A stretch of 64,000 nucleotides of DNA from Escherichia coli (GTDB taxonomy: Bacteria; Pseudomonadota; Gammaproteobacteria; Enterobacterales; Enterobacteriaceae): NCBI RefSeq assembly GCF_003018115.1, contig NZ_CP027457.1. One strand, 5' to 3'. Positions 2,829-47,701 of the stretch are shown piece after piece. A program made the position numbers and the translations under genes. Positions within the stretch are counted from its first letter, which is position 1; each line of letters begins with the position of its first letter. Below the pieces are notes generated by a model. The model saw nothing but the letters and a program-made list of their open reading frames with translations. It made no database searches and was not told the DNA's origin.

Positions 2829-3773
2829 ATGCTAACATTTTTTATTGGCGATTTATTGCCTATTATCGTAATCATGCTGTTGGGTTATTTTAGCGGCAGA
2901 CGAGAAACTTTTTCAGAAGATCAAGCCCGGGCATTTAATAAACTGGTATTAAACTACGCGCTTCCTGCAGCCCTATTTGTTTCTATTACCCGGGCAAACA
3001 GGGAAATGATTTTTGCGGACACTCGTCTGACCCTTGTATCACTCGTGGTTATTGTCGGATGTTTCTTTTTCTCCTGGTTCGGTTGCTACAAATTTTTTAA
3101 ACGTACTCATGCAGAAGCAGCTGTATGTGCATTAATTGCAGGTTCACCTACCATTGGATTCCTGGGGTTTGCAGTTCTCGATCCTATTTATGGTGATTCC
3201 GTATCAACAGGTTTAGTGGTAGCAATTATTTCTATTATTGTTAACGCAATTACTATTCCTATTGGTCTGTATTTGCTGAATCCTTCCTCAGGAGCGGATG
3301 GTAAGAAGAATAGTAATCTGAGCGCATTAATTTCTGCGGCAAAGGAGCCAGTTGTATGGGCACCTGTTCTGGCAACGATCCTGGTGTTGGTTGGGGTAAA
3401 AATTCCGGCAGCATGGGACCCAACCTTTAATCTGATTGCGAAGGCTAACTCAGGGGTAGCGGTATTCGCTGCGGGGTTGACTCTGGCTGCACATAAATTC
3501 GAGTTCAGTGCCGAAATTGCTTATAACACCTTCCTGAAGCTGATTCTGATGCCACTGGCACTGCTTCTCGTTGGTATGGCATGTCATTTGAACAGCGAAC
3601 ATCTGCAGATGATGGTACTGGCAGGCGCATTACCGCCGGCATTCTCCGGAATCATTATTGCCAGCCGGTTTAATGTCTACACCCGTACTGGTACAGCGTC
3701 ATTGGCTGTGAGCGTACTGGGTTTTGTCGTCACGGCTCCCTTGTGGATTTATGTCAGTCGACTGGTTTCATAA
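2829..3773 (+). CDS. yfdV: AEC-family membrane transporter (putative oxalate/formate-related)
   Basis: 314-aa highly hydrophobic ORF; position between oxc and yfdE. Confidence 0.85.
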
Positions 3774-3801
3774 TTAATCATGTTATTGATTTTACATAAA
3801 T

Positions 3802-3834
3802 GCCGAAGTGTCTTTTCACCTTCGGCTTTTTTCA
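3802..3834 (+). terminator. Rho-independent terminator after yfdV
   Basis: GC stem gccgaag..cttcggc followed by TTTTTT. Confidence 0.6.
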
Positions 3835-3846
3835 AGGCATAAGCAA

Positions 3847-4992
3847 ATGACAAATAATGAAAGCAAAGGGCCGTTTGAAGGCTTATTAGTTATCGATATG
3901 ACACATGTCCTTAATGGACCTTTCGGAACTCAACTTCTTTGTAATATGGGCGCACGGGTAATTAAAGTTGAGCCGCCGGGCCATGGTGATGATACCCGCA
4001 CATTTGGTCCCTATGTGGATGGACAGTCACTCTATTACAGTTTTATTAATCATGGCAAAGAGAGTGTGGTTCTTGATTTAAAGAATGATCACGATAAAAG
4101 TATATTTATAAATATGCTTAAACAAGCTGATGTATTAGCTGAGAATTTTCGCCCAGGTACAATGGAAAAACTAGGGTTTTCATGGGAAAGGTTACAAGAA
4201 ATCAACCCGCGCCTCATATATGCTTCATCGTCAGGTTTCGGACATACCGGTCCGCTAAAAGATGCTCCTGCCTACGATACCATCATTCAGGCAATGAGCG
4301 GGATAATGATGGAAACAGGGTACCCTGATGCTCCGCCAGTGCGTGTTGGTACCTCTCTTGCGGATCTATGCGGCGGTGTTTATTTATTCAGCGGAATAGT
4401 GAGTGCACTTTATGGCCGCGAAAAGAGCCAAAGAGGGGCGCATGTCGATATAGCGATGTTTGATGCCACGCTGAGTTTTCTGGAGCATGGTCTGATGGCA
4501 TATATTGCGACAGGGAAGTCACCACAACGCCTGGGAAATCGCCATCCCTACATGGCACCTTTTGATGTTTTCGATACTCAGGATAAGCCGATTACGATTT
4601 GTTGTGGTAATGACAAGCTTTTTTCTGCGTTATGCCAGGCACTGGAGCTTACGGAACTGGTTAATGATCCCAGATTTAGCAGCAATATTTTACGCGTACA
4701 AAACCAGGCTATTCTTAAACAATATATTGAGCGGACGTTAAAAACGCAGGCAGCTGAAGTTTGGTTAGCCAAAATACATGAAGTCGGTGTGCCCGTAGCG
4801 CCGTTATTAAGTGTGGCTGAGGCCATTAATTTGCCACAAACTCAGGCGAGAAATATGTTGATTGAAGCCGGAGGAATAATGATGCCGGGTAATCCGATAA
4901 AAATCAGCGGCTGCGCGGACCCGCATGTTATGCCGGGAGCGGCAACGCTCGACCAGCATGGGGAACAAATTCGCCAGGAGTTCTCATCATAA
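3847..4992 (+). CDS. yfdE: Acetyl-CoA:oxalate CoA-transferase (type III CoA-transferase family)
   Basis: ORF-track frame 3808..4992; start placed at internal ATG (MTNNESKG...) downstream of the terminator; paralogous to frc. Confidence 0.88.
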   Translation: MTNNESKGPFEGLLVIDMTHVLNGPFGTQLLCNMGARVIKVEPPGHGDDTRTFGPYVDGQSLYYSFINHGKESVVLDLKNDHDKSIFINMLKQADVLAENFRPGTMEKLGFSWERLQEINPRLIYASSSGFGHTGPLKDAPAYDTIIQAMSGIMMETGYPDAPPVRVGTSLADLCGGVYLFSGIVSALYGREKSQRGAHVDIAMFDATLSFLEHGLMAYIATGKSPQRLGNRHPYMAPFDVFDTQDKPITICCGNDKLFSALCQALELTELVNDPRFSSNILRVQNQAILKQYIERTLKTQAAEVWLAKIHEVGVPVAPLLSVAEAINLPQTQARNMLIEAGGIMMPGNPIKISGCADPHVMPGAATLDQHGEQIRQEFSS

Positions 4993-44315: not shown

Positions 44316-46388
<2,073 letters not shown>

Positions 46389-46397
46389 CTATTAATT

Positions 46398-46414
46398 GGC
46401 TGATCGGACTTGTT
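46398..46414. promoter_or_regulatory. Putative FadR activator site in fabB promoter
   Basis: ggctgatcggacttgtt matches ANCTGGTCNGACNTGTT. Confidence 0.55.
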
Positions 46415-46417
46415 CGG

Positions 46418-46432
46418 CGTACAAGTGTACGC
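46418..46432. promoter_or_regulatory. Putative FabR operator (palindrome GCGTACA-AG-TGTACGC)
   Basis: Palindromic arms (GCGTACA / TGTACGC) immediately downstream of the FadR site upstream of fabB. Confidence 0.55.
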
Positions 46433-46480
46433 TATTGTGCATTCGAAACTTACTCTATGTGCGACTTACAGAGGTATTGA

Positions 46481-47701
46481 ATGAAACGTGCAGTGATTAC
46501 TGGCCTGGGCATTGTTTCCAGCATCGGTAATAACCAGCAGGAAGTCCTGGCATCTCTGCGTGAAGGACGTTCAGGGATCACTTTCTCTCAGGAGCTGAAG
46601 GATTCCGGCATGCGTAGCCACGTCTGGGGCAACGTAAAACTGGATACCACTGGCCTCATTGACCGCAAAGTTGTGCGCTTTATGAGCGACGCATCCATTT
46701 ATGCATTCCTTTCTATGGAGCAGGCAATCGCAGATGCGGGCCTTTCTCCGGAAGCTTACCAGAATAACCCGCGCGTTGGCCTGATTGCAGGTTCCGGCGG
46801 CGGCTCCCCGCGTTTCCAGGTGTTCGGCGCTGACGCAATGCGCGGTCCGCGCGGCCTGAAAGCGGTTGGCCCATATGTGGTCACCAAAGCGATGGCATCC
46901 GGCGTTTCTGCCTGCCTCGCCACCCCGTTTAAAATTCATGGCGTTAACTACTCCATCAGCTCCGCGTGTGCGACTTCCGCACACTGTATCGGTAACGCAG
47001 TAGAGCAGATCCAACTGGGCAAACAGGACATCGTGTTTGCTGGCGGCGGCGAAGAGCTGTGCTGGGAAATGGCTTGCGAATTCGACGCAATGGGTGCGCT
47101 GTCTACTAAATACAACGACACCCCGGAAAAAGCCTCCCGTACTTACGACGCTCACCGTGACGGTTTCGTTATCGCTGGCGGCGGCGGTATGGTAGTGGTT
47201 GAAGAGCTGGAACACGCGCTGGCGCGTGGTGCTCACATCTATGCTGAAATCGTTGGCTACGGCGCAACGTCTGATGGCGCAGACATGGTTGCTCCGTCTG
47301 GCGAAGGTGCAGTACGTTGTATGCAGATGGCGATGCATGGCGTTGATACCCCAATCGATTACCTGAACTCCCACGGCACTTCGACTCCGGTTGGCGACGT
47401 GAAAGAGCTGGCAGCTATCCGTGAAGTGTTCGGCGATAAGAGCCCGGCGATCTCTGCAACCAAAGCCATGACCGGTCACTCTCTGGGCGCTGCTGGCGTA
47501 CAGGAAGCTATCTACTCTCTGCTGATGCTGGAACACGGCTTTATCGCCCCGAGCATCAACATTGAAGAGCTGGACGAGCAGGCTGCGGGTCTGAACATCG
47601 TGACCGAAACGACCGATCGCGAACTGACCACTGTTATGTCTAACAGCTTCGGCTTCGGCGGCACCAACGCCACGCTGGTAATGCGCAAGCTGAAAGATTA
47701 A
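46481..47701 (+). CDS. fabB: 3-oxoacyl-ACP synthase I (KAS I)
   Basis: 406-aa ORF with active-site Cys region [10 protein letters not shown]. Confidence 0.96.

Follow-up and report, generated by a model that had tools for sequence, protein, structure and literature searches.

Adjacent FadR and FabR operator sites at the fabB promoter of Escherichia coli

The 35-mer ggctgatcggacttgttcggcgtacaagtgtacgc, which occupies positions 46398-46432 of a 64,000-nucleotide stretch of Escherichia coli chromosome (hereafter the window), is, with a probability that we put at roughly 97%, the composite FadR-FabR operator of the fabB promoter. The sequence of this element, its identity with the characterised element of E. 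coli K-12, its position and its conservation were all observed directly in our analysis; the evidence for binding and regulation is drawn from follow-up publications, both of the original groups and of others. The fabB operator for FadR and FabR is already known and well characterised, and nothing about it is new here. The value of the result is that of a positive control, since an initial annotation made by reading the sequence, and nothing else, had located, to within 1-2 bases, a dual operator that is characterised by experiment. How much carbon flows into unsaturated fatty acids is set by the level of FabB, which in this way controls membrane fluidity, homeoviscous adaptation, acid tolerance and biofilm formation (PMC4804515, PMC7083825, PMC11525553).

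Organization of the fabB upstream region

The window derives from the chromosome of a non-K-12 E. coli and matches O157:H7, O145 and other strains at 100%. The open reading frame downstream of the element encodes FabB, which places the element at the fabB promoter, as had been proposed, and the same gene carries the fabB annotation in RefSeq E. coli genomes. YfcJ and Flk are encoded downstream of fabB, while the divergent upstream open reading frame, which starts at 46322 on the minus strand, encodes MnmC; this order matches the flk-yfcJ-fabB / mnmC arrangement of K-12. Counted from the fabB ATG, the element itself occupies the stretch 49-83 nt upstream, within the 158-bp intergenic region (46323-46480) that separates fabB from mnmC. 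The E. coli chromosome also carries fadR and fabR, both of which are located outside the window.

Two sites make up the element (see the table below). The FadR-like site ggctgatcggacttgtt of the initial annotation was indeed present at 46398-46414. The FadR-site segment of the fabB element reads CTGATCGGAC, with CTGATCGGACTTGTTC (46400-46415) as the conserved core. Bases 46398-46399, with which the 17-mer opens, vary between strains and between genera, the conserved FadR core begins at 46400, and the conserved block as a whole extends from 46400 to 46434. The arms of the palindrome, GCGTACA (46417-46423) and TGTACGC (46426-46432), were confirmed in place and are 100% complementary around a 2-nt centre, with a FabR core, ACAAGTGT, that fits ACAnnTGT. 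The description of the palindrome as following the FadR site directly is also borne out, in that the 17-mer stands 2 bases (CG, 46415-46416) away from the arms and 1 nt away from the 18-bp FabR site in its published form. The latter ends at 46433, one base past the end coordinate given originally.

Features of the fabB upstream region, with their coordinates in the window
Feature	Coordinates	Strand	Remarks
CpxR box, GTAAGgctgcGCAAA	46369..46383	+	Third published regulator site of the fabB promoter; sequence present in the window
FadR operator, 17-mer in consensus register, GGCTGATCGGACTTGTT	46398..46414	+	About -46 to -30, counted from the published start
-35 hexamer TTGTTC, weak, 3/6 matches	46410..46415	+	Predicted; within the right half of the FadR site
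FabR operator, 18-bp palindrome, GGCGTACAAGTGTACGCT	46416..46433	.	About -28 to -11; lies in the spacer of the two hexamers and reaches the -10
-10 hexamer TATTGT, 4/6 matches	46433..46438	+	Predicted; 6-7 nt separate its end from the published start
fabB transcription start site (+/-1 nt)	46444..46445	+	Published start 37 nt before the ATG (PMC7083825); ATG at 46481
fabB coding sequence, beta-ketoacyl-ACP synthase I, 406 aa	46481..47701	+	NCBIfam equivalog NF005935, 804.8 bits vs a cutoff of 630

The predicted -35 and -10 hexamers are 17 nt apart, and the FabR site ends on the first base of the predicted -10. A scan of 46250-46550 with the sigma-70 consensus returned no match of at least 9/12, because this hexamer pair matches the consensus at just 7 of 12 positions; the same poor match would account for the need for an activator. 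We considered this null result as an argument against the presence of a promoter and rejected it, as the published start site together with a conserved TAnnGT points to a weak, activator-dependent promoter (7/12). We infer the exact assignment of the -35 and -10 hexamers, as we do the steric mechanism described below.

The CpxR box is listed in Table 1 of a published study of this promoter, in which the DNase I footprint extends from -119 to -94 relative to the ATG (PMC7083825), corresponding to 46362-46387 of the window. An interval of 15 nt separates the box from the FadR site downstream, and its GCAAA half, along with the TTT that follows, is kept in most Enterobacterales fabB upstream regions.

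Motif specificity and published binding evidence

We searched the whole 64-kb window with ANCTGGTCNGACNTGTT, which we take to be the FadR consensus, allowing at most 2 mismatches. This search returned 3 matches vs 0.33 expected, a number that was reached in 0 of 100 shuffles. All three are situated in promoters of fatty-acid genes, namely fabB, fadL and fadI, with no false positives, and this perfect specificity of the search within the window supports the fabB match, whose 17-mer departs from the consensus at 2 positions (1 and 6). The fadL match, AGCTGGTCCGACCTATA (26859-26875, minus strand), is upstream of FadL (open reading frame 25409-26755, minus strand, 877 bits). The fadI match, AAGTGGTCTGACCTGAT (27543-27559, minus strand), lies 27 nt before the fadI ATG (27586, plus strand) and is presumably the FadR operator of fadIJ.

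Two further observations concern these fad loci. A weaker FadR site, ACTGGTCTGATTTCTAA (approximately 26834-26850, minus strand), is found 8 bp beyond AGCTGGTCCGACCTATA, in agreement with the published two-site fadL promoter and its 8-bp separation. The fadIJ operon (FadI, 27586-28896; FadJ, 28896-31040) has AAGTGGTCTGACCTGAT at its head.

It could be argued that the FadR-like 17-mer of fabB is a mere -35 region that happens to resemble the consensus by chance, and that the palindrome is the sole real operator. The two mismatches are compatible with such a view, as is the coincidence of the right half of the 17-mer with the predicted -35, TTGTTC. We nevertheless judge it to be extremely unlikely. 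The excess of consensus matches over expectation, all of them at promoters of the FadR regulon, argues against a chance resemblance, as does the occurrence of the same CTGATCGGAcTTGTT core upstream of fabA in distant genera. In addition, FadR has been shown by electrophoretic mobility shift assay (EMSA) to bind this exact sequence (PMC4537474), and fabB expression is lower in fadR mutants (PMC4259882).

For the palindrome, symmetry by itself is unremarkable: the window contains 7 perfect 7+7 repeats with a 2-nt loop, vs 3.8 +/- 1.7 in shuffles, and on this basis we rejected the notion that it is significant merely as a palindrome. Its weight comes from its identity to the published FabR operator, its similarity to the fabA operator and its conservation.

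The reading of the element as a FadR operator next to a FabR operator is supported by published experiments on both proteins. The EMSA probe fabB_ec-BD, TCTATTAAATGGCTGATCGGACTTGTTCGGCGTACAAGTGTACGCTATTGTGCATTC, is identical to the window element, has both the FadR site and the FabR palindrome GGCGTACAAGTGTACGCT marked, and was shifted by FadR (PMC4537474), in keeping with the dual control by FadR and FabR that the initial annotation had recognised. Binding of FadR to the fabB promoter was also reported by EMSA in a study in which expression of fabA-lacZ and fabB-lacZ was 2-2.5-fold down in a fadR mutant (PMC4259882). With respect to FabR, fabB is repressed by C18:1-ACP-FabR, for which C18:1-ACP is the co-repressor and C16:0-ACP competes, and deletion of fabR leads to an approximately 4-fold increase in FabB (PMC11525553). 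Chromatin immunoprecipitation (ChIP) in Salmonella revealed direct occupancy of fabA and fabB by FabR in vivo, and the same work gives the FabR core motif as ACAnnTGTnnnnT (PMC4804515), which ACAAGTGTACGCT of the element fits. Finally, boxes for FabR, FadR and CpxR are all drawn on a published map of the fabB promoter (PMC7083825).

Regulatory logic and comparison with the fabA and fad promoters

The two sites, taken with the published binding and expression data, fit the following control of fabB. FadR, a GntR-family dimer, binds the 17-bp site, centred near -38 and over the poor -35, and activates transcription, presumably by aiding RNA polymerase at this weak hexamer. Long-chain acyl-CoA derived from exogenous fatty acids binds FadR and causes it to leave the DNA, with loss of activation. 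FabR, a TetR-family repressor, binds the 18-bp palindrome, where it would cover the spacer as well as the first -10 base and thereby hinder RNA polymerase; this repression is stronger with unsaturated acyl-ACP or acyl-CoA and is relieved by saturated species. The level of FabB, and with it the ratio of unsaturated to saturated membrane lipids, is thus under feedback control.

The closest relative of this architecture is the E. coli fabA promoter, in which a FadR site, AACTGATCGGACTTGTT, is likewise followed by a FabR site, AGCGTACACGTGTTAGCT. The FadR core CTGATCGGACTTGTTC is identical in the two promoters, the spacer is 2 nt in both, and the left FabR arm is GCGTACA in both, whereas the right arm is imperfect in fabA (TGTTAGC) and perfect in fabB (TGTACGC). 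Overall, the FabR sites of fabB and fabA differ by 3 mismatches in 16, on either strand. At fabA, FadR is located at approximately -40 and FabR overlaps the -10 (PMC3462791); unlike fabB, fabA has additional promoters (PMC7083825).

The FadR operators of fadL and fadI share with the fabB site the same 17-bp consensus and are sites for the same protein. However, no FabR palindrome accompanies the fad-gene sites, while one does accompany the fabB FadR site. The outcome also differs: FadR represses the fad genes because its site there overlaps or follows the core promoter, in contrast to the position of the fabB site, at approximately -46 to -30, which is associated with activation. The fabB site is a standard example of how FadR serves as a repressor at fad genes and as an activator at fab genes.

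Conservation and spacing of the paired sites

Within E. coli the element is nearly invariant. The intergenic region of K-12 MG1655 aligns with that of the window without gaps and has a sole difference, at 46397 (T here, A in K-12), 1 base upstream of the 17-mer. Converted by way of this alignment, the paired sites fall at approximately 2441653-2441688 (minus strand) of K-12. Lack of conservation in the K-12 fabB promoter, which the initial annotation had named as the observation that would count against it, is thus not what we found, as MG1655 is identical across the whole element; the K-12 promoter serves the same gene in the same orientation and at the same distance from the ATG, with no functional difference. 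In 5425 of 5426 complete E. coli genomes the 35-mer is kept at 33 or more of its 35 bases (all matches having at least 99% identity over at least 80% of the length), and the 351-bp stretch around the site is present as a single copy, annotated fabB | mnmC, in 5425 of 5426. The weakest record sampled, from strain Ec-U18, retains bases 3-35 exactly, yet has only 94.9% identity across the 351 bp around them. Close to the site it differs at 46397 and 46399, the latter being an N position of the consensus.

To follow the element across genera, contigs from one genome per species were scanned with the pattern CTGATCNGANNTGTTN{0,8}GCNTACANNTGTNNGC, which gave at least 120 matches. This pattern forces 23 of 33 positions, so that the informative features are the unforced columns, the spacing and the flanks, and the resulting set, being conditioned on the pattern, reports on constraint where the element exists and not on how frequently it is absent. 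A FabB open reading frame is downstream in at least 57 matches, all of them from Enterobacterales among the matches listed. These include Escherichia, Citrobacter, Enterobacter, Yersinia, Serratia, Pantoea and Erwinia, as well as Pectobacterium, Photorhabdus, Xenorhabdus, Budvicia, Moellerella, Arsenophonus and others. At least 62 matches have a FabA open reading frame downstream, including those of Shewanella, Photobacterium and Salinivibrio. The restriction of the listed fabB matches to Enterobacterales agrees with the report that fabB of Shewanella and Vibrio is without a FadR site (PMC4537474).

Among the matches listed, the unforced columns inside the element carry 1.62 bits for fabB and 1.28 bits for fabA, compared with 0.47 and 0.63 bits, respectively, for the 40 nt upstream and 0.61 and 0.68 bits for the 45 nt downstream. 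In an alignment of 18 Enterobacterales fabB upstream regions the FadR core is invariant, which is in part forced by the search pattern, and T1, A2, G5 and T6 of the -10 are kept as TAnnGT, the columns beyond the end of the pattern being unforced. Apart from the region of the Shine-Dalgarno sequence and the ATG, the element together with TAnnGT is the only long invariant block in these 18 regions.

These comparisons bear on which gene the element serves. As it lies within the divergent region common to mnmC and fabB, the element might mainly regulate mnmC, or might regulate both genes, and not fabB alone. We consider this very unlikely, given that the distance from the element to the fabB ATG is nearly fixed (42-63 nt with a mode of 48, across 57 species among the matches listed), that the same element occurs before fabA, where the neighbouring genes differ, and that the element is positioned on the -35 and -10 hexamers of fabB. 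We also found no publication that describes mnmC as a target of FadR or FabR.

They bear equally on the possibility that the inverted repeats act through nucleic-acid structure, as a cruciform or an RNA hairpin, and not as protein operators. The element does contain two overlapping inverted repeats, ACTTGTTCG/CGTACAAGT and GCGTACA/TGTACGC. However, a structural role appears vanishingly improbable: the element is upstream of the start site and is therefore absent from the fabB mRNA, a stable hairpin would need loops longer than the 1-2 nt present, variation at the central NN of the FabR site (AAGT, AACT, ATCT) deprives the first repeat of conservation between genera, and protein binding is documented (PMC4804515, PMC4537474). 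The first of these repeats, ACTTGTTCG/CGTACAAGT (46408-46426), is 89% complementary and reaches from the right half of the FadR site into the left half of the FabR site. We examined it as a candidate third symmetric site or hairpin and rejected it on account of the variation in its central dinucleotide across genera; the repeat is probably incidental.

The spacing of the two sites is uniform. Although the pattern allowed a spacer of 0-8 nt, it is exactly 2 nt in 120 of the 120 matches listed, which come from Enterobacterales, Vibrionaceae and Shewanellaceae and precede fabB, fabA and one FabF-like operon. The fixed spacing thus holds, among these matches, over three gammaproteobacterial orders and two or three target genes. 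This uniformity makes contact between FadR and FabR possible, and one could propose that the two sites form one obligate composite element in which the rigid 2-nt spacing lets the proteins touch or sterically sense each other on the DNA, with cooperative or competitive binding. We hold this proposal to be improbable. The fixed spacing could just as well be an ancestral layout that became frozen under the demands of a fixed promoter geometry. If true, coupling between FadR and FabR would go beyond the action of two independent regulators, and it may already be treated in the primary literature.

One tandem element, CTGATCGGACTTGTTCAGCGTACACTTGTACGC, in Acerihabitans arboris (NZ_WUBS01000007.1, 4797-4829, minus strand), is upstream of neither fabA nor fabB. 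It precedes an open reading frame for an HxlR-like regulator (4186-4758, minus strand), followed by one for a FabF-like beta-ketoacyl-ACP synthase (2918-4189, minus strand), and this operon may be an extra member of the regulon in that genus.
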